Made by a program: the position numbers and the translations under genes. 64,000 bases of DNA from a phage: assembly GCA_024790105.1 (NCBI GenBank), contig GCA_024790105.1_3053.1; one strand, written 5' to 3'. This document shows, in pieces, positions 555 through 61,101 of the stretch (positions are counted from its first letter, which is position 1; each line of letters starts with the position of its first letter). The notes below the pieces were generated by a model, which had not been told where the DNA came from, searched no databases, and saw only the letters and a list, made by a program, of their open reading frames with translations.

Positions 555-1879
555 TTGATTTCCTCTAAATCTTTAGTGTATTCGGTAACTACATCAGTAG
601 TTTTCCAATATTCGTTTTCTTCTTTCTTAGCTTTAGCTTCTTCAGCAAGTTTCTTTGCTTCATCAGAAGTCATGTGAAAAATATTCATTCCAATTAGTTT
701 ATCAACATAAGAAGAATACATATCGATTTTCGAAAGTTCTTCGGTCAGTTCTTTACGAGTTTTACCCTGCACAACGATTTCACCTGAAATTACTTTCTTA
801 ATGAAATGCGCCTTGGCAAAGGCTAAACGAAAAGCGGACTCAGTTTCTTTAATTTTGTTATCAATTCGTTTTTGGACATAAGTTTTACGAACTTCAACAA
901 AGTCTTTAATTAAATCAACTACGTTATCGTAAACTTGTAGTTTTCCTTTCTCATTAATAACAGTAATATTCTGAGAACGACGCTCAATCAACCCGAAGTC
1001 TTTCATAATTTTCGCGTGGCGTTCTTCTTCATTATCGCTCAAAGAATATTCTTTACGGAATTTAACTTTAAAGCCAAAACCATGCTCACCACAAGCATCA
1101 TCCCATGTAATGAAGCCTTTATCTTCAAGTGGGTCTAAGATTTTACTCACATAAGTTTCACGATCATACTTATACGGAATCTCAGTGATATTCATTTGAG
1201 TTCGTGAAGTAAACTTATATGTTCCACGAATTTCATATTGGCCATCAATCTCAACGACTTCACCACGAAATTCTGGGAATTCTACCTTCGGTTTAGTTAC
1301 TTTCTTTCCTTGAAGAGCTTGTAGTACAGCTTTCTTGACAGAAGAAACACTATGAGGAAGAATGTAAGTTGCATAACCAGTTGCAATACCGGAGACACCA
1401 TTAAGAAGAACAGTAGGAATAATAGGCAAATAGAAAGCAGGCGGAATGTGTTCTTTATCTTGATGTACCGGAGCATATTCAGTATCTTTATATACGTTAT
1501 AGAAATTTTTACTTACACGAGCAAAAATATAACGACTTGCTGCTGCTTTTTGGACGGTACGAGAACCAAAGTTTCCTTGGCCATCTAACAAAGGAAAGTT
1601 ATTATTCCAAGTATTAGCCATCAAAGCACCTGCGTCTTGCGCAGAGATTTCACCATGATGATATCCAAGGTCCGCTACACCACCTGCAATAGAAGCGAGT
1701 TTGTGAAACTTATCTTTATTTCCTCGTGCCAAATCAAGAGCTCGAGCAATAACAAATCGTTGAACTGGCTTAAATCCATCAATCATATTTGGGATAGCAC
1801 GATTTTCAACCGTGTACATAGCATAAGCCAATGCTTCATTATCAATGATACTTTTTAAATCGCGATTATTCAGTTGCAT
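551..1879 (-). CDS. 52: DNA topoisomerase II medium subunit gp52 (GyrA/ParC-like)
   Basis: 442-aa ORF, ATG at 1879; catalytic-tyrosine topo II sequence; position between motA and ndd. Confidence 0.95.
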   Translation of the reverse strand: MQLNNRDLKSIIDNEALAYAMYTVENRAIPNMIDGFKPVQRFVIARALDLARGNKDKFHKLASIAGGVADLGYHHGEISAQDAGALMANTWNNNFPLLDGQGNFGSRTVQKAAASRYIFARVSKNFYNVYKDTEYAPVHQDKEHIPPAFYLPIIPTVLLNGVSGIATGYATYILPHSVSSVKKAVLQALQGKKVTKPKVEFPEFRGEVVEIDGQYEIRGTYKFTSRTQMNITEIPYKYDRETYVSKILDPLEDKGFITWDDACGEHGFGFKVKFRKEYSLSDNEEERHAKIMKDFGLIERRSQNITVINEKGKLQVYDNVVDLIKDFVEVRKTYVQKRIDNKIKETESAFRLAFAKAHFIKKVISGEIVVQGKTRKELTEELSKIDMYSSYVDKLIGMNIFHMTSDEAKKLAEEAKAKKEENEYWKTTDVVTEYTKDLEEIK

Positions 1880-1883
1880 AAAT

Positions 1884-2024
1884 TTACCATACTAGTGAAT
1901 GTAGTGCCATAATAACATCAGAAATGAAAAGCACGACTTGAATTAATCCGAACATTACTCCATAATATAGTGCTACTAATAAAGTAGCAAGGGCTAATGA
2001 ATAGCCCAAGATTTTCTTAATCAT
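1884..2024 (-). CDS. small membrane protein (46 aa)
   Basis: ATG 2024-2022 overlaps ac stop; hydrophobic MIKKILGYSLALATLLVALYYGVMFGLIQVVLFISDVIMALHSLVW. Confidence 0.4.
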   Translation of the reverse strand: MIKKILGYSLALATLLVALYYGVMFGLIQVVLFISDVIMALHSLVW

Positions 2025-2175
2025 TAGTAGATAACAACACAAATGTTAAATATGCACACATACCCTGGGCTAAAGCTTGTGAAAACACGCTGCTGGCATC
2101 AATACAGATAGTTAAAACACATGCTACTATCCAACAAATAAATGAAATAACTCCTAATAATTTTGCGATATTCAT
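2017..2175 (-). CDS. ac: small membrane protein, acridine-sensitivity (ac)-like (52 aa)
   Basis: ATG 2175-2173; MNIAKLLGVISFICWIVACVLTIC...; position between stp and gene 52 as in T4. Confidence 0.6.
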   Translation of the reverse strand: MNIAKLLGVISFICWIVACVLTICIDASSVFSQALAQGMCAYLTFVLLSTND

Positions 2176-12445: not shown

Positions 12446-12943
12446 TTATGCACAGCGAGCTTTGCTATAGTGTTTAATCCAACTTTCAGGAATGACTTTG
12501 TATGTTCCTAAAAATACCGCGTTGTACAACTTAACGCCATCTTCTACCCATTGATCGGTAATGTATGCACACATAGCACGAGTACGATGTTTTTGAACAA
12601 CCCCTTCCTCATCTTCGGTAAATTCGAATTCATAAGGAGCAATGAACTTAATAGCCTGACCGAGTTTCCACTTAAAGTCTACACCTACATGCGAAGTATC
12701 AATCGTTTCAATTCCTTTAGCAGGAACAGCTTTCAAAAACGCAGACTCAAGAAATTTCGCACGAACATAGCCAAACTGAGGTTTAGACTTTCCATCTTTA
12801 GGAATGATACGCACTTTTACTTCAGAATCTTCATCTTTAACACCGTGTTTAAGCTGAATGCTTACAATTTCAACCAATTTTCCTGCTGCTTTAGAACGGG
12901 ATTTATCAGATACACGAGCAATTTCACCAATATTAATAATCAT
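12446..12943 (-). CDS. hypothetical protein (165 aa), MotB position
   Basis: ATG 12943; C-terminal ITDQWVEDGVKLYNAVF region paralogous to next gene. Confidence 0.65.
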   Translation of the reverse strand: MIINIGEIARVSDKSRSKAAGKLVEIVSIQLKHGVKDEDSEVKVRIIPKDGKSKPQFGYVRAKFLESAFLKAVPAKGIETIDTSHVGVDFKWKLGQAIKFIAPYEFEFTEDEEGVVQKHRTRAMCAYITDQWVEDGVKLYNAVFLGTYKVIPESWIKHYSKARCA

Positions 12944-17817: not shown

Positions 17818-18420
17818 TTATAGATTAAATCTTTCAAAATCAAGAGTATAGATAGTGTATGTTGAATACTTTTTGTACTCATATCTATCTGCAATTCTAA
17901 ATACACTTCCAGCTGGTATCATTACTTCTTGTTCATCTGAAACTAATTCCATATTACGATAACGATGGCTATCCGGAAACTTAAAGTTTGGATTGTATTC
18001 TTTACAGCGTAGAGCTTTTATAGCATACTCCTGGAAATTGAATACCATAGGAGCTTTGAATTCAAAAATAACTTGTGTGTTATACTCTAAACCGGAAGCA
18101 AAATGTAGAGCTATATTTTTATCATATGAAGCTGATACGACTTTATCAAATATAATAATATCAATTCCTTGATTTAACACTTGCTTAGTCTCGACTGGAA
18201 CACCTCTCCAAAGAGGTTTATCGTTTGGAACCAAACGAGATTTGATTATTTCATTTAACCAAGTATGGTCATCTGGCTTATTGGTAATACAATGAATTAA
18301 AAGTTCAATTTCAGATAAATTAAACCCTTCAGAAAGCAATTCTTCACGAATAGAAGCACGCACCGATGCATCCATTGATTTTATTTTAAAATCTTTTAGT
18401 TGCATTACTGAGTATTTCAT
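17818..18420 (-). CDS. modA: ADP-ribosyltransferase ModA
   Basis: 200 aa; ATG 18420 overlapping modB stop; length and position. Confidence 0.8.
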   Translation of the reverse strand: MKYSVMQLKDFKIKSMDASVRASIREELLSEGFNLSEIELLIHCITNKPDDHTWLNEIIKSRLVPNDKPLWRGVPVETKQVLNQGIDIIIFDKVVSASYDKNIALHFASGLEYNTQVIFEFKAPMVFNFQEYAIKALRCKEYNPNFKFPDSHRYRNMELVSDEQEVMIPAGSVFRIADRYEYKKYSTYTIYTLDFERFNL

Positions 18421-19040
18421 TCAACTACCTCAATATCATAAACTTTAAATGTTCCAAATGAATCGTGTAATTTTTCTTTTGAAATAGAAGTTATTTTATA
18501 CTTTCCAATTGGAATCATCCATTCTTGTTCACGCACAATCATCATTAAGTTATCAGTACGCTCTGAATCTAGCCCATCAGTATCTTCATACGTGTACTTG
18601 AACTCAGTATTAGGAGAAGAAAGTATAATATCGCTGATATGGTCAGAGTAATTAAAAGCTTTATCAGTTTTTAAACGAAATATTATTTCAGTGAAATACT
18701 CAACATAAGAAAAAGAACATGCTGTGTGCAAACTAGTAGTAAATGAATCTACCCTGTTCGTTGAAAACACTTCTCCAACTTGTAAATCTTTAATGAGCTC
18801 TTTTGTCGATTTTGATATACCACGATATAACTGATAAGGCGATTTAGTTAAATGCTTTTTAATGATTTTATTCAACTGTCTGTGAAGAGCTTCATTCTTT
18901 TTGGCTTCCATACATTGCCAAAGAATTGACTGTTCAAAGTCAGTAAATTTTTCACAAACCTTTTTATACATATCATATTGAAAATCAACGCTTTCAGCTT
19001 TTATAGATAACTGTTCAACATCTGCAAGATTAATAATCAT
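18417..19040 (-). CDS. modB: ADP-ribosyltransferase ModB
   Basis: 207 aa; ATG 19040 with GGAGG SD. Confidence 0.8.
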   Translation of the reverse strand: MIINLADVEQLSIKAESVDFQYDMYKKVCEKFTDFEQSILWQCMEAKKNEALHRQLNKIIKKHLTKSPYQLYRGISKSTKELIKDLQVGEVFSTNRVDSFTTSLHTACSFSYVEYFTEIIFRLKTDKAFNYSDHISDIILSSPNTEFKYTYEDTDGLDSERTDNLMMIVREQEWMIPIGKYKITSISKEKLHDSFGTFKVYDIEVVE

Positions 19041-40524: not shown

Positions 40525-42205
40525 TCTTAGCTAAACTAAATCTACCAACTTTTTCCATCTGAATATGCTGACCATATTCTTGTGGGTCATGGTCTTTATG
40601 CGAAATTATGAAGAAGTTGGTATCCTTCAAACCATCTAAAATTTTAGCTACATTTTTAATGCCTTCAGCATCAAATGCACCATCATACACTTCATCAAGA
40701 AATAAACAACTTATTTTAACACCTGAAACTTTTTCAGCAATATCACGCCAAGTAAATAAAAGAGCAATATCAATTCGTGCTTTTTCGCCTTGACTAAATG
40801 AAGCATAACTAAAATCTTCACGACCACGGGATTTAATTGTCTCATTAAATTCTTCATCTAATGTAAACACATAATCCGCTTCCATTATTTTAAGATAATG
40901 GTTAATCTGCTTATTAAATAATGGAATGTACTTTTTAATAATAGCACCTTTAATACCAGAATCTTTGAGCATATCAGTCAAAATTCCTCGGTGGTATTTT
41001 TCCATTACTAAATTAGTTTTTGTCTTAACAATTTTATCAAGTTCTTCTTGAAGCAGTGCTATTTCATCAGCATGGTCAATAAACTCAGAAGATGCTTTTT
41101 CTATAGCTGCTTTAACTTTTTTAGCTTTATCTACCGTCGTGATTAGAGATTGCTTTTTATTGCGAATATCATTTGCCAACGACTGCTGGGTTTTAATATT
41201 ATCTCGGTATTCATCAACAAGAACTTTTAAATTATCACGATGTGTTGAAAGCTGTTCAAACGAATGCGTACATTCAGAAACTTTATCTTTAATTTTAGAA
41301 ACAACTTTATCACCGGAACTTAATTGTGACAGACAGGTTGGACATAATCCGCCTTCGTGATACATATTAATGACTTTATTATACGAGTCAATTTTTGATT
41401 TAATTAAAACTGCTTCTTGACCGATTTTATTAAATGCATCAGTCGGGTCTTCATCCAAAACAATATTAACTAATCTTTCATTAGCTTCTTCTATTTCCGA
41501 TTTTAGCGTTCTAGCTTCTTTTGCCAAATCATCATACATATTTTGTAGACGAGTAAGGTTGTCACCCGTTAATTTTTTCTGGCGTTCAACGTTATCATTA
41601 TATATTTTAATTTGTTGGATAATACTATCTTTTTTAACATCAAGCACTTGGTTTTGTGAATTTAATTCACGTATTAGTGCTTTATTAAGCTTATCCATTT
41701 CAGCTAATGTTCCTACCTCAAGCAGGTCTTCCACAAGCTTTCTTCGCGCAGGGGTCGACAAACCCATGAAAGGGGTATACCCTGCTGTACCAAGGACAAC
41801 AATCTGCTTGAAACTGGCATATGACATTCCGATAAGCTGTTCAAATTCTGCTTGGAAATCTTTACTGCTGGCAGATTCATTAAGACGTGTACCGTTAACG
41901 GTGATTTCGAAAACGTTTGGTTTTTGTCCTCTTTTGATATAGTACTTTTTCTCATCATATTCCATCCACAGTTCAACTAAAAGTTCTTTCTTATTTGTGC
42001 TGTTTATTAATTGACCTTTCTTTACATCACGAAATGGCTTGCCAAAAAGCCCAAATGTGATGGCTTCTAACATAGTAGACTTACCACCGCCATTTCGTCC
42101 AGTAATAAGAGTTTTTTGAACCTTATCTAATTGAATGTCAATCCCATTTTGACCAACTGACATTATATTTTTATATTTTACTCTGTTAAGTTTAAAATTC
42201 TTCAC
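40517..42205 (-). CDS. 46: recombination nuclease subunit gp46 (SbcC/Rad50-like)
   Basis: 562 aa; GTG 42205 overlapping upstream stop with AAGGAA SD; Walker A GRNGGGKST. Confidence 0.9.
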   Translation of the reverse strand: MKNFKLNRVKYKNIMSVGQNGIDIQLDKVQKTLITGRNGGGKSTMLEAITFGLFGKPFRDVKKGQLINSTNKKELLVELWMEYDEKKYYIKRGQKPNVFEITVNGTRLNESASSKDFQAEFEQLIGMSYASFKQIVVLGTAGYTPFMGLSTPARRKLVEDLLEVGTLAEMDKLNKALIRELNSQNQVLDVKKDSIIQQIKIYNDNVERQKKLTGDNLTRLQNMYDDLAKEARTLKSEIEEANERLVNIVLDEDPTDAFNKIGQEAVLIKSKIDSYNKVINMYHEGGLCPTCLSQLSSGDKVVSKIKDKVSECTHSFEQLSTHRDNLKVLVDEYRDNIKTQQSLANDIRNKKQSLITTVDKAKKVKAAIEKASSEFIDHADEIALLQEELDKIVKTKTNLVMEKYHRGILTDMLKDSGIKGAIIKKYIPLFNKQINHYLKIMEADYVFTLDEEFNETIKSRGREDFSYASFSQGEKARIDIALLFTWRDIAEKVSGVKISCLFLDEVYDGAFDAEGIKNVAKILDGLKDTNFFIISHKDHDPQEYGQHIQMEKVGRFSLAKIS

Positions 42206-48774: not shown

Positions 48775-49057
48775 GAGAAATAATTCCTTGATAAGCCCAG
48801 TATGGCGGGTTAACAGAATCCTCACCAGAGTTTTCTTCAGGAAAATAAACCTGGATAACAAATCCAGATGCATCAAAGGTAAAATAAACCGTAGGCAGTT
48901 CACCTAACAACTCGGCACGAGCGTTGATTTCTTCGAGGTCTTGTTCACGTCCAGCCCAGAAGCTTGGGTTCAGACTACATTCATAGAAATAATAGTCATT
49001 ACCGAACATATCAAAACCCTTCCAACTCTCTACTACATACCGCTCAAAACTAATCAT
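48746..49057 (-). CDS. hypothetical protein (103 aa)
   Basis: ATG 49057. Confidence 0.6.
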   Translation of the reverse strand: MISFERYVVESWKGFDMFGNDYYFYECSLNPSFWAGREQDLEEINARAELLGELPTVYFTFDASGFVIQVYFPEENSGEDSVNPPYWAYQGIISRGTKLELKE

Positions 49058-49059
49058 AA

Positions 49060-49275
49060 TTAAGCCTTTTTATCAAGAACAGCATTCAGCTTGTTAATAA
49101 TTTTATCCAGACGCTCATTAAACTCACTAGAAGATAAGCCCTTTTCTGGAGAAATTAAACTAATCACGAAAAATATAGCAATAAAAGGAATAAGGAAAAT
49201 AGCTCCAACTGCCATAAACAGAAAGAATGTTACAGTTGTAAGAAAATCAGCTAAACCTTTACGAAATTTATACAT
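49060..49275 (-). CDS. small membrane protein (71 aa)
   Basis: ATG 49275 with AAGGGTAAAAT SD. Confidence 0.6.
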   Translation of the reverse strand: MYKFRKGLADFLTTVTFFLFMAVGAIFLIPFIAIFFVISLISPEKGLSSSEFNERLDKIINKLNAVLDKKA

Positions 49276-49391
49276 ATTTTACCCTTAATTGATTAACCAA
49301 GCATTGATAAGCACTAAACTATATTGGGAATAAAATTCTGGACCAAAAATGAAAAATCATATCATTTATAGTATCCATAATGTAATTCAAT

Positions 49392-49862
49392 TTAATCATG
49401 TTTCCACACCCCATCGGTATTTGACCAAAGTCGCTGATTATCTGATCCTCGCCACAGCTTTTTAGTCGGAAGATTTTTCTCATACTTCCCATCAATAATA
49501 ACATCAACATATTTAAGCATTTCTAGTTGTTTAATATCCTCAAACTTATATCCTGTCCACAACCAAATGCTTTTATTTGGATAAAGATTTTTTACTGTTT
49601 GAACAATGCAATGAATAACATCTCGGTTATCAGGATAGAGAGGGTCTCCTCCAGTTATAGTCAATCCTTCTATATAATCATTATTCAAACATTCAATTAA
49701 TTGTTCCAGTGTTTCACCAGTGAATGGAACGCCATTTCTAGCATTCCATGTTGATTTATTATAACACCCTTCGCATTTATGCAAACAACCAGTAACGAAA
49801 AGAACTGTCCTGCATCCAGGACCATTAACAAAGCAGCACGGGTATATTCTGTCATAATTCAT
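49392..49862 (-). CDS. nrdG: anaerobic ribonucleotide reductase activating protein NrdG (radical SAM)
   Basis: 156 aa; CLHKCEGC motif; ATG 49862. Confidence 0.9.
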   Translation of the reverse strand: MNYDRIYPCCFVNGPGCRTVLFVTGCLHKCEGCYNKSTWNARNGVPFTGETLEQLIECLNNDYIEGLTITGGDPLYPDNRDVIHCIVQTVKNLYPNKSIWLWTGYKFEDIKQLEMLKYVDVIIDGKYEKNLPTKKLWRGSDNQRLWSNTDGVWKHD

Positions 49863-50691
49863 TTATATATTTCCAATTATAGCCTTCAACACTTTTACGT
49901 TCGCCATTTAAACATTTTAAAATATTTCCTTTGCTAGAAATATTAAAATATTTTGCTGCGTCTGGTATATAATTAAATGTTTTTAAAAGAACACCATCTT
50001 TATATGCGCCAAATAAATTAAGAGTATATTTTTCTCGAAGACGCTGATGTTTCCTTTTCATAACCTCAGGATTTGCATACGCCAACTTCAATGAATTTCT
50101 GTGTTTTTCTTTTACTTCAGGTTTTTGCATTGCTAACTTAGTTAGCCTGGAAATTTTATTTCTAACTTCGTCAGTTTTCATTGCATTTGACAAATTTAAT
50201 AAAGTTTTATTTCTAACTTCAGGTTTTTGCATTGCTAACTTAGTTAGTTCTCTATGTCTTTTTCTAAAATCGTCATCCTTCCATATATTTTTCGATAATT
50301 TTGACATAGAGCGGTGAAATAATTCCTTTTCACTGGAATACAATTTAAAAATTTCATCCAATTCATCCGCATTAAATCTATCGGTATTCGAGTTTATCAT
50401 TCTATGAAAGGCATAACACATTTTACTATTGCTTGTTTTAGCTAAATAGTAATGAGCTAACGCATGGTCATAATATGACAAATTAACAATATTCCATTTA
50501 TCTGTTTTATATTCAGGAAATATAGATTTGGGAAGCACGTGATGTGCTTCCGTTTTTCCTTTTATTTTAGGATTATTATAATTTTTTGTTATCAAATCAA
50601 CATATGACAATAGTAAATCATTATTTTCTTCAAATATTAAAGATAATTTATCATTCACAAAATCGCAAGGATAAAATCTATCATAATTCAT
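49852..50691 (-). CDS. HNH homing endonuclease (MobC-like) between nrdD and nrdG
   Basis: 279 aa; EAHHVLPKS...DHALAH motif; N-terminus MNYDRFYPCDFVN duplicates nrdG N-terminus. Confidence 0.8.
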   Translation of the reverse strand: MNYDRFYPCDFVNDKLSLIFEENNDLLLSYVDLITKNYNNPKIKGKTEAHHVLPKSIFPEYKTDKWNIVNLSYYDHALAHYYLAKTSNSKMCYAFHRMINSNTDRFNADELDEIFKLYSSEKELFHRSMSKLSKNIWKDDDFRKRHRELTKLAMQKPEVRNKTLLNLSNAMKTDEVRNKISRLTKLAMQKPEVKEKHRNSLKLAYANPEVMKRKHQRLREKYTLNLFGAYKDGVLLKTFNYIPDAAKYFNISSKGNILKCLNGERKSVEGYNWKYINEL

Positions 50692-50703
50692 TGGTGTTTA
50701 ACC

Positions 50704-53566
50704 CTATGCATGTTTTACTCGTTTTACCATTTCTTTCATTTTACCTAAATTCCATGGGACAACGCTAGGAGTTCCAAGATATCCGCATGTTCTTCTTATT
50801 GTGTTCATCTTTTTAGGATCAGTTTCTCCACAAATAGAACAAACAAATCCGTTTTCAGTAGGAGTCATTTCATGGGTACTTCCACATGTAAAACATTTAT
50901 CTACTGGCATGTTAACACCAAAATAATCTAAATGTTGTACAGCATAATCCCATACAGCCTCAAGACCTTTTAGGTTATTTTTCATATCAGGAAGTTCAAC
51001 ATAAGAAATGTGACCACCTGTCGCAATGAAATGATATGGCGCTTCACGAGAAATCTTTTCAAACGGAGTAATATTTTCTTCTACTGAAACATGGAAACTG
51101 TTAGTGTACCAGCCTTTATCGGTAACATCCTTTACACTTCCATATTTTTCTGTATCAAGTTTACAGAAGCGATAACAAAGGTTTTCAGCAGGAGTCGAAT
51201 ATAAACTAAAAGCAAATCCAGTTCTTTCAGTCCACTGTTTAAGATGAGCATTCATTTTAGTTAAAATTTCCTGTCCAATATCACGACCGACAAGAATATT
51301 CAATTCATGAATACCAATGTATCCTAGGGACACTGAACTTCTACCATTTTTAAATAACTCAATTATATCGTCATCAGGTTTAAGACGAACCCCGAATGCA
51401 CCTTCTTGGTAAAGAATAGGAGCAACAGTCGCTTTAACTCCTTTTAAGGAACTAATTCTACACATCAAAGCTTCAAAACACAGATCCATTCGTTCATTGA
51501 ATAATTCAGTAAATTTCTGTTCATTGAACTGTGTTCCAATATAAGAATCTAACGCAATACGAGGAAGATTCAGTGTTACAACACCAAGATTATTACGTCC
51601 ATCAAGAATTTCATTACCAGTCGAATCTTTCCATACGCTCAAGAAACTACGGCAACCCATTGGAGAAACAGGAACAGATGAACCAGTGATAGCTTTATTG
51701 TTCTTAGCTGAAATAATATCAGGATACATCCTTTTGCTTGCACACTCTAGAGCAAGCTGTTTAATATCATAGTTCGGATCGTCTTTGTAAAGATTAACGC
51801 CTTCTTCGACGAACATAACAAGCTTAGGGAAAATAGGAGTTATCCCATCACGACCGAGACCTTTAATACGATTTTTCAGAATTGCTTTCTGAATCATTCG
51901 TTCAGTCCAGTCAGTTCCTGTACCAAATGTAATTGTTACAAAAGGTGTTTGTCCGTTTGAACTGAAAAGTGTATTTACTTCATCATTATATTCAGCATGA
52001 GTCGCAAATTCATGCCCGTTTATATGAAACGACAAAATTTGGATAGTCCATAGATATGCAACGTTCTTTTATAGTGCTAGGATGAAAATTTAGCGCTTTA
52101 GCTGCTTCTATATAAGACGTATACTTAATACCGTCAACAACCACATATTCAGGAACTTTATGAATAGTAGTCTTAATACTCAAAACAAGAGGATGAGTTT
52201 CGACTTCACTTTCAGTGCAATTTAAATATTCCGCTGCTTTTTTAAAACTTCTAAAAGTTTTATTTTTAAGCTTTATCGATACTTGTTTTTTACTTTTTCG
52301 ACTATTGATATTATTTTGCACATGTTCCTTAGATCTTCTGTTTTTAGCATAATATTCAGCCACAGAAGATTTTATATTGTTTTTATGAGATTCGGATAAC
52401 ACTTTACCCTTATGAGCATCTCTTAATTTTTGAATATGTTCTTCAGTATCCGGATGCTTATAAAACTTTTTACCGCCTATGGATTTATTTAAACATTTTT
52501 TGCTATAAAAATATTTACGTATGACCTCTTCTTCATGTTTTAATGCATCTTTATAACTATCAAATGTTTTTAAAATTATCCATTTAGTAGGTGTATCAGT
52601 TTTTAAGCGTTCATTTATATACTTAGATGACGTTGTGTAAGTTTTCCAGTTTGTGGGCTTGTTTTTAACTGTTCTAAATTTTTTATAACCGATATAAATG
52701 TCGCCATTAGAAAACTTAACTAAGTATGTAAATGCGTCTTTATCTTTTATTTTAGTACAACGTCTTTTTATCCATTTCATTGTTTCACCTCGTATTCATA
52801 AGATAATCTTATTTATACAAGATGACTGCTGCATGTCGCCATGCAGATTAGACTATATCTTCATCTTTCGATGCCGGCCGTTTCGAATAGCATTAGCTTC
52901 TATTCTACACCGCTACATTCATCACGGTTAGTCGTTAGGCATTTAGTTCAAAAGAACATTTAGCACGGGATTGTCTACTAGAGAGGTTCCCCGTTTAGAC
53001 CGGTTTTACATGAGCCTGAATTAAATTAACTCATACGCCTGGAATGCATCGTATACGTCTTTTTCTGTTTTAGATTGAGCATAATTCAACGCATCAGCGA
53101 TTTGCCATTTTTCTGCATCTTCAATATGTTTTGCATAGGTGCGTTTAACATAAGGAGAAAGTACTTTATCTACATTAGCAAAAGTCGTTCCGCCGTATTG
53201 GTGAGAAGCAACCTGTGCAGTAATTTGCGCCATAATTGCAGTAGCAACGCCAATTGATTTAGGAGTTTCAATCTGCGCATTACCAAGCTTAAATCCGTTC
53301 TCAAGCATTCCTTTTAAATCTACTAAACAGCAATTAGTAAAAGGAAGAGCAGGGGAATAATCAATATCGTGCACGTGAATAATTCCGCTTTCATGCGCTT
53401 TCATAATAAAAGACGGGACCATATTTTTGGCAATGTGTTTAGACACAATACCAGCCATAAGGTCCCGTTGAGTTGGAAAAACACGAGAATCTTTATTAGC
53501 ATTCTCGTTTAAAAGGTCTTTATTAGTTTTATGAATCAATCCTTCAATTTCTTTTTCAATTGTCAT
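50704..53566 (-). CDS. nrdD: anaerobic ribonucleotide reductase NrdD, interrupted by a group I intron; inferred join(50704..51983,53029..53566)
   Basis: exon 1 ORF from ATG 53566 and exon 2 ORF ending in glycyl-radical RRTCGYLG and Zn ribbon; splice coordinates inferred from U/G boundary rule assuming a 605-aa product. Confidence 0.8.
51984..53028 (-). mobile_element. group I intron (sunY/nrdD type) with 3'-located endonuclease ORF; boundaries approximate
   Basis: ribozyme core CUAAACGGGGAACCUCUCUAGUAGACAAUCCCGUGCUAAAU...AAAUGCCUAACGACUA...GAGAUAUAGUCU...CUGCAUGGCGACAUGCAGC read at 52781-53020. Confidence 0.7.
52010..52780 (-). CDS. intron-encoded GIY-YIG-type homing endonuclease (256 aa)
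   Basis: ATG 52780 with GAGGTGAAACA SD; TYLVKFSNGDIYIGY motif and NUMOD-like repeats. Confidence 0.75.
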   Translation of the reverse strand: MKWIKRRCTKIKDKDAFTYLVKFSNGDIYIGYKKFRTVKNKPTNWKTYTTSSKYINERLKTDTPTKWIILKTFDSYKDALKHEEEVIRKYFYSKKCLNKSIGGKKFYKHPDTEEHIQKLRDAHKGKVLSESHKNNIKSSVAEYYAKNRRSKEHVQNNINSRKSKKQVSIKLKNKTFRSFKKAAEYLNCTESEVETHPLVLSIKTTIHKVPEYVVVDGIKYTSYIEAAKALNFHPSTIKERCISMDYPNFVVSYKRA

Positions 53567-54036
53567 TTTAAACTCTTTCTAAGCTGCTTCTTGAATGAAG
53601 CTATTAATTGTGTTTTGGTGTCAGATTCATTATATTCAAATCCTCTTTGAAGCATCTCGGCCATCATTTCCTCTTTTCCTAAACGAGAAAATTCCTTTGA
53701 TTTATCTCCAACAAAGTTAGGGTGAATATTATTTTGGGTGTAATCGGATTTTAAATAAGTAAGTAAATTTTCTAACCATTCAAGATAATCAACACCTTGT
53801 CCCTTTAAGCCAGAACGATTAAATTTATGCTTCATTTGACCTTCTGCGGCATTGCATAGATTACAAAGCAATCCACGTACCTTTCCTGCTTTTGGTCCAT
53901 TTAATTCATGGTCATGATCAAGATGATTAGCTTGAACATCAGGATTTAGTTCTCGTTGGCAAATTAAGCATTTACCATTTTGTGCATCATAAAATTTCTG
54001 TTTTTCTTCTTTATATAATTTGCCAGTCAATAACAT
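53563..54036 (-). CDS. 49: endonuclease VII gp49 (Holliday junction resolvase)
   Basis: 157 aa; zinc-binding CLICQ...CNLCN; ATG 54036. Confidence 0.9.
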   Translation of the reverse strand: MLLTGKLYKEEKQKFYDAQNGKCLICQRELNPDVQANHLDHDHELNGPKAGKVRGLLCNLCNAAEGQMKHKFNRSGLKGQGVDYLEWLENLLTYLKSDYTQNNIHPNFVGDKSKEFSRLGKEEMMAEMLQRGFEYNESDTKTQLIASFKKQLRKSLK

Positions 54037-54077
54037 AATAAACCCTTACCTTAAATAGATAAGGGTATTTATTATTT

Positions 54078-54563
54078 TCAAGTATTGTAAAACATTTGAT
54101 TCAATCGCTTATATTGCCGAATCTTTTGGTCAGAAAAAGAAATTTGAGTTTCAAGCCATTCAATATATTCTGCCGCAGCTTGCATCAGGTTACCTTCATA
54201 GCCATCGTTATTTTCTTGTGCAGCTAATTTAGCTAATGCGTATGAAATACGTTCACCTTGAAAAGCGGCTTTAGGTATTTGAACATCTTGACTAGTTCTC
54301 TCTACAACTTCTTCAATTTCGCCATTTTCGACTGATTCAGTATTCCACAAGCACCAATACGTAATTGGCTTATCGTAGATGTTAATAATCTTTCCGTCGG
54401 AAAGTTCAATTTCAATAATTCCAGTATCAGGTTCTATATCATCTTCACATTCTTTTGCAAGTTCACGAACTTTAAAGACAGTACCTGCGCTAAGTTCCGG
54501 CCAGTAATTACATAGCCCTGTATCAGCACGATTAATTCTAAACCACTTATCTACTGTAATCAT
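54078..54563 (-). CDS. pin: Pin (Lon protease inhibitor)-like protein, 161 aa
   Basis: ATG 54563 with GGAGA SD; length and position. Confidence 0.65.
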   Translation of the reverse strand: MITVDKWFRINRADTGLCNYWPELSAGTVFKVRELAKECEDDIEPDTGIIEIELSDGKIINIYDKPITYWCLWNTESVENGEIEEVVERTSQDVQIPKAAFQGERISYALAKLAAQENNDGYEGNLMQAAAEYIEWLETQISFSDQKIRQYKRLNQMFYNT

Positions 54564-60727: not shown

Positions 60728-60916
60728 TTAACTACTCCACCTAATCATTTCAAGATATTGAACTAACTTAGCTTTAGATTTATCCAAATCCTTTTTAGCT
60801 GCTTCTATACCGTCGTATGAATATCCTTCACAATGCTCAACTGCTAATTGATATGAATCTATTTCAATATCACGTGCTAATTTAATGATTTTTTCAAACT
60901 GTTCGCATGTTAGCAT
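60728..60916 (-). CDS. hypothetical protein (62 aa)
   Basis: ATG 60916 with GAGAG SD. Confidence 0.55.
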   Translation of the reverse strand: MLTCEQFEKIIKLARDIEIDSYQLAVEHCEGYSYDGIEAAKKDLDKSKAKLVQYLEMIRWSS

Positions 60917-60918
60917 AC

Positions 60919-61101
60919 TTAAACTCTCGTATTATGATCGATAATTTCATCAAGAAACATATCTAACGCTTCTAAAGCATTATCAACTTTAGCTTCAAAT
61001 TCTTCAATACCTGATAAGGCAAAGTTAATGCGCTCCTCATCTGCTTTACGAATTAAAGCTACCAATTCCTTAATTTTATCAGCTTGTTCGATACTAATCA
61101 T
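60919..61101 (-). CDS. hypothetical protein (60 aa)
   Basis: ATG 61101 with GGTGGA SD; ORF-track start is GTG. Confidence 0.5.
   Translation of the reverse strand: MISIEQADKIKELVALIRKADEERINFALSGIEEFEAKVDNALEALDMFLDEIIDHNTRV

Follow-up and report, generated by a model that had tools for sequence, protein, structure and literature searches.

Why should a gene lying between nrdD and nrdG begin with almost the same codons as nrdG itself, and which of the two copies is the original one? This question is raised by a stretch of phage DNA of 64,000 nucleotides (nt) (contig GCA_024790105.1_3053.1 of the GenBank assembly GCA_024790105.1; hereafter the window), in which the region concerned comes from a T4-like phage (Tequatrovirus). 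All features of this region are on the minus strand. A complete open reading frame (ORF) of 279 amino acids (aa) at 49852..50691 is followed there by nrdG at 49392..49862, which encodes the functional activase of the anaerobic ribonucleotide reductase (RNR; Fer4_12, 2.9e-48). We consider it likely that the ORF is a free-standing homing endonuclease gene (HEG) of the Mob-type HNH kind, which occupies the nrdD/nrdG hotspot of mobC and segH, is inserted within nrdG, and carries a spare, recoded nrdG 5' end.

The protein encoded by the 279-aa ORF starts with MNYDRFYPCDFVN, and NrdG starts with MNYDRIYPCCFVN. The first 13 codons common to the two genes agree at 11 of 13 amino acids and at 32 of 42 nt in register (binomial P ~8e-11), which bears out the duplication proposed in the initial annotation. 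A chance similarity of two 5' ends was ruled out, since the HEG/nrdG pair has the top score among 10,011 ORF-start pairs in the window (the runner-up scores 29). An independent repeat search returned a 41-nt direct repeat (49823-49863 / 50652-50692) with 78% identity. The two ATG codons are 829 nt apart and the two ORFs overlap by 11 nt (49852..49862), as had been noted before from a spacing of about 830 bp and the same overlap.

The copy that belongs to the resident genome can be recognized by comparison with relatives lacking the insert. The comparison covered ten HEG-less Tequatrovirus junctions, including RB32 and seven IMG/VR contigs, one HEG-less Jiaodavirus (JY1), and nine HEG-containing genomes. 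All 11 HEG-less junctions have one nrdG 5' end straight after nrdD or the upstream gene, whereas the HEG-containing genomes have the duplication with the same left (..AATG|ATAA..) and right junctions in 9/9 cases. A duplicated leader without an endonuclease was looked for among the relatives compared, and none was found. The junction alignment called for in the initial annotation thus favours a connection of the duplication with insertion of the HEG. In the HEG-less Tequatroviruses nrdD ends with ..ATCATGCATAGGGTTAAACACCAATGA, and the ATG within an ATGA overlap opens nrdG (ATGAATTATGATAGATTTTATCCTTGCGATTTTGTGAATGGT..); the two genes therefore leave no intergenic space. In the window, the upstream copy (the leader, 50652..50691) corresponds to resident nrdG nt 1-40 (ATG..GTGAATG) and supplies the HEG start codon and first 13 codons. 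Together with 21-24 nt upstream it is 100% identical to three HEG-less junctions (L009, L010 and L012), and the identity breaks at nrdG nt 41 (..GTGAATG|ATAAATTATC). Because of this complete match up to nt 41, we assign the upstream copy to the resident nrdG. These alignments place the insertion point between nrdG nt 40 and 41 and indicate that the HEG has borrowed the nrdG start codon.

The same polarity is observed in a second genus, which provides the decisive control. The HEG-less Jiaodavirus JY1 has a distinct nrdG start, ATGAATTTCGACAGAATCTACCCTTCTGACTTTGTGAATGG (MNFDRIYPSDFVNG). The HEG leader of SmallBear, a HEG-containing Jiaodavirus, matches JY1 nrdG at 40/40 positions (MNFDRIYPSDFVN), preceded by the same upstream sequence and followed by the same HEG body, and the leaders of UTI-K1 and KP01 are one position off JY1. 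The functional nrdG in these HEG-containing Jiaodavirus genomes opens with the Tequatrovirus-like MNYDRIYPCCFVN. Across the nine HEG-containing genomes, leader polymorphisms (GTG/GTT, TAT/TAC, CCT/CCC) follow the haplotype of their own lineage.

Between the two copies lies the element-specific HEG body of 789 nt (49863..50651), which contributes no start codon and no stop codon. RB32, T4, LZ2, T6 and ELT1 contain no sequence matching this body, and those of PST and T4_ev240 are 99.9% identical to it. The sole conserved start is the captured nrdG ATG, as the next methionine is residue 91, past the catalytic histidines, and the TGA stop (49852..49854) falls within codons 3-4 of the spare nrdG copy, where the sequence reads TA-TGA-C. 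The native Jiaodavirus nrdG (ATGAATTTCGAC) lacks that TGA, which is consistent with a spare copy imported alongside the HEG. Homology within the family begins near residue 15, and homologues at other loci have unrelated N-termini. With the upstream copy resident and the downstream copy imported, the mobile unit is therefore the 789-nt body plus the spare nrdG nt 1-40. The element lies outside introns and inteins and is flanked by conserved genes of the same orientation, as is usual for free-standing elements; strictly, it is located 40 nt inside nrdG. A palindrome, GTCCTG-GATG-CAGGAC, with a perfect 6-bp stem (49807..49822) starts at nrdG nt 41, the first base past the insertion point. Its RB32 version has 7 bp, the GGC..GTC haplotype preserves the pairing by a T-A to C-G change, and EcMI02 and TB004 lack it. 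A candidate minus-strand terminator was rejected, being the palindrome within nrdG.

The functional nrdG is thus a hybrid of a replacement segment, nt 1-40 (the 'CC allele', 49823..49862), carried on the 3' side of the element, and the resident nt 41-471. The replacement differs from the native allele at 9/40 nt, including a full codon swap, GAT -> TGC (D10C). Window nrdG is 77.5% identical to that of RB32 over nt 1-40 and 97.0% over nt 41-471 (Fisher P=2e-5). In five comparisons of HEG-containing with HEG-less nrdG, the identities are 72-78% and 94-97%, respectively, with Fisher P values of 2e-5, 1e-4 and 1e-6 in the three of these five comparisons to which the test was applied. The three HEG-containing Jiaodavirus genomes have the same contrast, their downstream copy being 72-75% identical to the local allele; SmallBear nrdG has an additional T4-like tract at nt 61-150. 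The spare 40-nt copies of the two genera have six differences, all of them synonymous by inspection. As expected for co-conversion, nrdG nt 1-40 accompanies the HEG in every HEG-containing genome compared. In a search of the phage collection with the 5' 70 nt of window nrdG, a HEG was linked to at least 53 of the 60 best matches (>=91% identity): 50 have an overlapping mob-type or SegH endonuclease, and three more contain the present HEG.

This anatomy suggests how the element may spread. The resident 40 nt are read in frame into the endonuclease; the HEG therefore uses the nrdG start codon and would be expressed through the nrdG initiation region. The spare nt 1-40 join the resident nt 41-471 and rebuild an intact nrdG. 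The HEG protein would cut HEG-less DNA in or near the nrdD/nrdG junction, and the break would be repaired from a HEG-containing co-infecting genome, using nrdD and nrdG nt 1-40 as the left homology and nrdG from nt 41 onward as the right one. Repair between these homologies would necessarily copy the HEG body together with the spare 40 nt. This route is proposed on the basis of the established homing biology of the T-even free-standing endonucleases (PMC2988022). Recoding of the spare copy may limit repeat-mediated deletion and/or self-cleavage, and, to judge from stop and start codons that lie close together or overlap, translation could be chained from nrdD through the HEG to nrdG. Break repair in the course of homing produces no duplications by itself; the original duplication must go back to a separate, illegitimate event. 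The description of the duplicated end as a typical homing scar, given in the initial annotation, holds insofar as the duplication is tied to HEG insertion; it is not a passive scar, and its precedent lies in the fungal mORFs discussed below, not in phage HEGs.

The assignment of the ORF to the HNH Mob-type homing endonucleases is accepted here on several concordant lines of evidence, all of them indirect. The ORF is 99.9% identical to annotated genes and matches PHROG 655 'homing endonuclease' (5e-37) and PHROG 12434 'HNH endonuclease' (7e-15). A BLASTP alignment with the HNH core of T4 MobC has 38% identity over 60 aa, and all eight database homologues compared, as well as T4 MobC, retain residues H50, H51, N67, H76 and H80. 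The family profile aligns the motif TEAHHVLPKS..N..L...H..AH with the HNH domain of McrA (E=0.0066) and reaches E ~0.3 with further HNH domains; T4 MobC itself matches the HNH region of IscB (1.4e-6). The HNH core, residues 45-84 (GKTEAHHVLPKS...WNIVNLSYYDHALAHYYLA), is encoded at 50440..50559. In the AlphaFold model (mean predicted local distance difference test score 69, and ~90 for residues 10-130), strand 47-51, strand 68-72 and helix 73-84 are predicted in the beta-beta-alpha order expected of this fold. A phmmer search of the HEG against PDB gave nothing relevant, and GerD and GltG matches in the Pfam and NCBIfam scans were discarded as spurious.

Two further parts of the protein are candidates for DNA binding. 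Repeated helical modules (LTKLAMQKPEV..) at 50104..50247 contain a 42-nt direct repeat with 90% identity at a spacing of 102 nt; they are probably NUMOD3-like DNA-binding repeats, as assigned by eye, and the homologue P0003 lacks one of them. The C-terminal residues 235-272 (49876..49989) form a putative NUMOD1 or I-HmuI-like DNA-binding domain, with sub-threshold Pfam matches to PF22083 (E=2.4e-4; 21.1 bits against a cut-off of 27 bits) and PF07453 (E=5.8e-3) and low AlphaFold confidence across the domain.

A similar arrangement was found at another locus. T6 ORF054 (284 aa, P0005 family, positions 1242..2096 of the T6 sequence L025) is a 37%-identical paralogue located between 46.1 and gene 46. 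Its start equals nt 1-18 of the resident gene 46 (GTGAAGAATTTTAAACTT), followed by divergence, and the sequence upstream is identical to the window at 196/200 positions. The T6 gene 46 itself starts with ATGAAATCATTTAAACTT, which is identical at 13/18 positions and includes an AAT -> TCA swap, while its nt 19-1200 are 98% identical. The window has no HEG at this place; its gene 46 starts with GTGAAGAATTTTAAACTTAAC at 42205, in a GTGA overlap with the 46.1 stop (42202..42205). T6 ORF054 thus resembles the window HEG in being a paralogue with a resident-gene leader, upstream of a gene rebuilt with a recoded 5' end, and differs in the locus, the 18-nt leader and a 15-nt spacer in place of the overlap. 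By these comparisons, start-codon capture combined with a recoded spare 5' end recurs in the HEG family at overlapping gene junctions.

On this basis we tentatively suggest, as a conjecture somewhat short of an even chance, that a PHROG 655 subfamily may be dedicated to a life within coding sequence without intron or intein. Its members would insert a small number of codons into the downstream gene of a translationally coupled pair, capture the start codon along with the initiation region, and carry a recoded spare 5' end that restores the host gene and is also a determinant of both immunity and protection against deletion, with a recognition site spanning the insertion (here the conserved DFVNGPGC-coding segment of nrdG). 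If this is true, the GAT -> TGC swap in nrdG and the AAT -> TCA swap in gene 46 would be explained as selected target-site recoding, and the subfamily would be the phage 5'-end mirror image of the fungal mitochondrial mORFs.

The HEG is sporadically distributed at a fixed site. It is 99.8-99.9% identical to genes labelled 'homing endonuclease', 'putative homing endonuclease' or 'mobC' in PST, T4_ev240, Ozark, UFV-AREG1 and others, amounting to ~22 Tequatrovirus records with the same site, and ~85% identical to copies in ~10 records of Klebsiella Jiaodavirus. The full HEG is present in 32 records, and 801 records match the 1,601-nt query that includes the nrdG and nrdD flanks. Most relatives are empty at the site (about three quarters of the Tequatrovirus rows in a spread sample span just 755 nt), and others have the GIY-YIG gene segH there. 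A scan of IMG/VR yielded no HEG copy, only HEG-less nrdG starts matching the 13-aa leader, which served as controls. The label 'RNR class III activating protein' on the UTI-K1 copy (701..1537 in its sequence, L023) probably stems from the nrdG-derived leader.

Between Tequatrovirus and Jiaodavirus, the ratio of nonsynonymous to synonymous substitution rates (dN/dS) of the HEG is 0.08, with 0.05 for the HNH core. Its synonymous rate (dS) of 0.85-0.9 compares with ~2.1-2.2 for nrdG, which indicates horizontal transfer. As judged from these rates, the HEG is under purifying selection and has been exchanged between the two genera after their split, at exactly the same nucleotide.

Several observations weigh against a mobile Mob-type HNH endonuclease that inserts in nrdG together with a spare 5' end. 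The HNH label, supported by the PHROG families, the invariant residues and the McrA and MobC alignments, stands without any curated HNH model, as those of Pfam and NCBIfam do not match the HEG even at E 0.01 or 1, and helical noise dominates fold searches with the whole HEG model. Leader capture is not universal in the family, as the metagenomic homologue P0007 has none in its context. The BF15 copy (701..1541 in L022) is frameshifted, and in KP01 (L024) a 2-nt insertion makes the HEG stop just before the nrdG ATG, with no nrdG overlap. The replacement allele is not strictly confined to the element: nrdD directly adjoins it in U5 (L015) and ESh24 (L018), the only two such cases among the 60 best matches, and both are HEG-less. 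In these phages the native nrdD tail is joined to the replacement allele, and U5 also has a partial alternative nrdD tail. Recombination in the shared first 11 nt of the repeats, with precise loss of the HEG, is a candidate origin of this junction, and partial co-conversion without the HEG would yield the same product. SegH at this locus reportedly cuts HEG-containing DNA as well, its own genome included, and immunity based on the allele may then not apply. Where the protein cuts, nrdG as its target, immunity conferred by the recoded 40 nt and coupled translation are all inferred. For T4 mobC, a review of T4 mobile elements gives a free-standing HNH gene at nrdG/nrdD, with 'ND' for its activity and 'unknown' for its target (PMC2988022).

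In part these points would suit an unlikely alternative, a one-off illegitimate insertion in which the duplication is accidental, the leader and the recoded copy have no role, and the element is inherited and immobile. The 'ND' entry of MobC and the frameshift in BF15 agree with it, as does the duplication, which homing itself would not make. It is difficult to reconcile with identical junctions in two genera between which nrdG has reached synonymous saturation, with the lower dS of the HEG, with a leader that matches the local nrdG in each genus, and with the low dN/dS and the repetition of the architecture by a paralogue at gene 46. Slightly less likely still is a domesticated or decaying gene, no longer a nuclease, that is kept only since its deletion would harm nrdG expression, the initiation context of nrdG now being part of the ORF. 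Embedded expression signals are known to favour keeping such genes (PMC2988022), and the nrdG start does lie inside the HEG 3' end; yet nrdG expression alone would leave the 279 codons unconstrained, whereas purifying selection extends across the whole ORF including the HNH core (dN/dS 0.05-0.08) and the catalytic residues are invariant. The reverse polarity, with a mobile leader, a resident downstream 5' end and an element placed cleanly between nrdD and nrdG, is formally equivalent from the window alone but most improbable, given leaders fully identical to the local HEG-less nrdG in both genera and a downstream copy in Jiaodavirus that is Tequatrovirus-like and diverged from the local allele. 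A mobile endonuclease inserted in nrdG with a spare 5' end is thus the preferred reading.

The other gene flanking the element, nrdD, has been modified as well. Its exon 1 (53021..53566) and exon 2 (3' end at 50704; Pfam NRDD, 2.7e-122) are separated by an intron with an ORF of the I-TevII type (52010..52780; 256 aa, GIY-YIG). Exon 2 ends with an alternative, recoded 3' tail of 82 nt at 50704..50785 (..GTPSVVPWNLGKMKEMVKRVKHA-stop, ..MKEMVKRVKHA-stop), which replaces the native ..GNPNERGFNLGKNKEIMHRVKHQ-stop. LZ2, which has segH, and ELT1, which has T4-type mobC, contain the same tail with 100% identity, and RB32, T4 and PST have no match to it. Upstream of the tail, the identity of nrdD to all of these phages is 96-97%. 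Next comes a remnant of 21 nt from the native nrdD 3' end (CATGCATAGGGTTAAACACCA, 50692..50712), which now provides the TAG stop of nrdD, read in another frame, and 12 nt of untranslated spacer ahead of the HEG ATG. In RB32, PST and L006-L012 it forms the last 21 nt before the nrdG ATG, coding there for ..MHRVKHQ-stop. Judging from these alignments, both genes flanking the HEG have duplicated, recoded ends, which for nrdD had escaped the initial annotation.

The intron ORF is 99.4% identical to that of ELT1 and has ~65% nt identity to I-TevII of T4 and PST, so by sequence it represents a separate variant among the intron endonucleases. Taken together, the window has a mosaic make-up, with an nrdD tail and an intron ORF of the ELT1/LZ2 type next to a HEG and an nrdG of the PST type. 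For the 1.6-kb query 49300..50900, identity to the best match in the database reaches only 97.1%, and we therefore take the exact mosaic combination to be absent from the collection.

Other ORF pairs with alike 5' ends occur in the window, namely 12446..12943 and 18417..19040 with 29/42 nt (MIINIGEIARVSDK / MIINLADVEQLSIK), and the adjacent tandem ORFs 60728..60916 and 60919..61101, which share 26/42 nt (the first being MLTCEQFEKIIKLA). These are probably paralogues. A scan for sigma-70 promoters remained at chance level (8 found, 10.2 expected), and an Rfam search over 49000..54500 detected no family, the nrdD group I intron included.

That HEGs turn over at the nrdD/nrdG hotspot has been on record since 2005, and the biology itself is expected. 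Many genomes already have the HEG annotated, and the hotspot is textbook knowledge in the field. The present case is a real and neat instance of a kind of mobile gene that was known before. Its value lies in the base-level description of a selfish endonuclease that colonizes a junction of overlapping genes by inserting inside the downstream gene, reusing its start and bringing a replacement 5' end. No earlier description of this architecture or of its recurrence at gene 46 was found in the literature examined, which did not include Sandegren et al. 2005. Several practical consequences can be foreseen. The leader probably causes mis-annotation, as in UTI-K1; being foreign patches, the imported 40 nt would mislead phylogenies built on nrdG, and the recoded tail those built on nrdD; and the contrast between leader and spare copy provides a simple in silico test of which DNA is mobile. 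The same contrast points to nrdG nt ~25-60 as a candidate target site for the class of HNH enzymes found at the mobC site.

Among known systems, T4 MobC is the nearest in position. It shares with the HEG the locus, the orientation, PHROG 655 and an alignable HNH core; it likewise opens with nrdG codons (MNYDRIY) and closes with ..WKY(K/I)(D/N)EL at a TGA in nrdG codons 3-4, with an 11-nt overlap. The two differ in size (210 vs 279 aa) and have no DNA similarity beyond the flanks. Full-length homology was not found, the protein similarity being local and confined to the 60-aa BLASTP alignment. The MobC leader of ~21 nt is shorter or degenerate compared with the 40 nt of the HEG. A 13-codon MobC leader with a one-codon deletion was considered and dropped, as the family alignment sets YSNLVN on the Y..LI motif, and seven codons are claimed. 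The HEG is another PHROG 655 member at the mobC site, and the GenBank label 'mobC' in PST is therefore positional. The nrdG next to T4-type mobC is chimeric in T4 (L003) and ELT1 (L013), with nt ~90-330 Jiaodavirus-like (26-30/30 vs JY1 and 11-24/30 vs RB32 per 30-nt window) and nt 331-471 RB32-like. By sequence this Jiaodavirus-like tract, of roughly 300 nt in T4, looks like a long co-conversion from another genus, in contrast to the 40-nt patch in the window nrdG.

The second occupant of the hotspot, segH, is reported to replace mobC in several phages (T6, LZ2 and RB3-type; Sandegren et al. 2005, NAR 33:6203). SegH resembles the HEG in its use of the nrdD/nrdG hotspot and in the recoded gene end, and the SegH phage T6 has the nrdG replacement allele, as the window does; the LZ2 nrdD tail is the one shared with the window. 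Unlike the HEG, SegH belongs to the GIY-YIG family, is inserted upstream of the nrdG ATG and has no nrdG leader; instead, the nrdD 3' end is duplicated or recoded, and in segH phages the segH start corresponds to the native nrdD codons ATGCATAGG. Among the phage RNR genes covered by a survey, nrdG was in no case reported as interrupted (PMC3653736). The nrdG of the window is formally interrupted and repaired.

By architectural analogy, the closest precedent is provided by the mobile-ORF (mORF) gene hybrids of fungal mitochondria, known from Allomyces atp6 and from Glomus atp6, atp9, cox2 and nad3 (PMC3630166; Paquin et al. 1994 cited there). In these hybrids a foreign, divergent replacement C-terminus has been inserted, and the native C-terminus, near-identical to that of element-free relatives, is left beside it (PMC3630166). 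The HEG shares with the mORFs an endonuclease ORF within a coding region, an imported diverged gene end and a retained native end. The geometry is reversed, as mORFs replace the 3' end of the host gene and the HEG replaces the 5' end. The recoded tail of the neighbouring nrdD does have the mORF-like 3' geometry, but its association in the database is with segH and T4-type mobC. The phage element also differs from the organellar ones in the nuclease family, and adds a twist of its own, in that the displaced native 5' end is reused as the start of the endonuclease.

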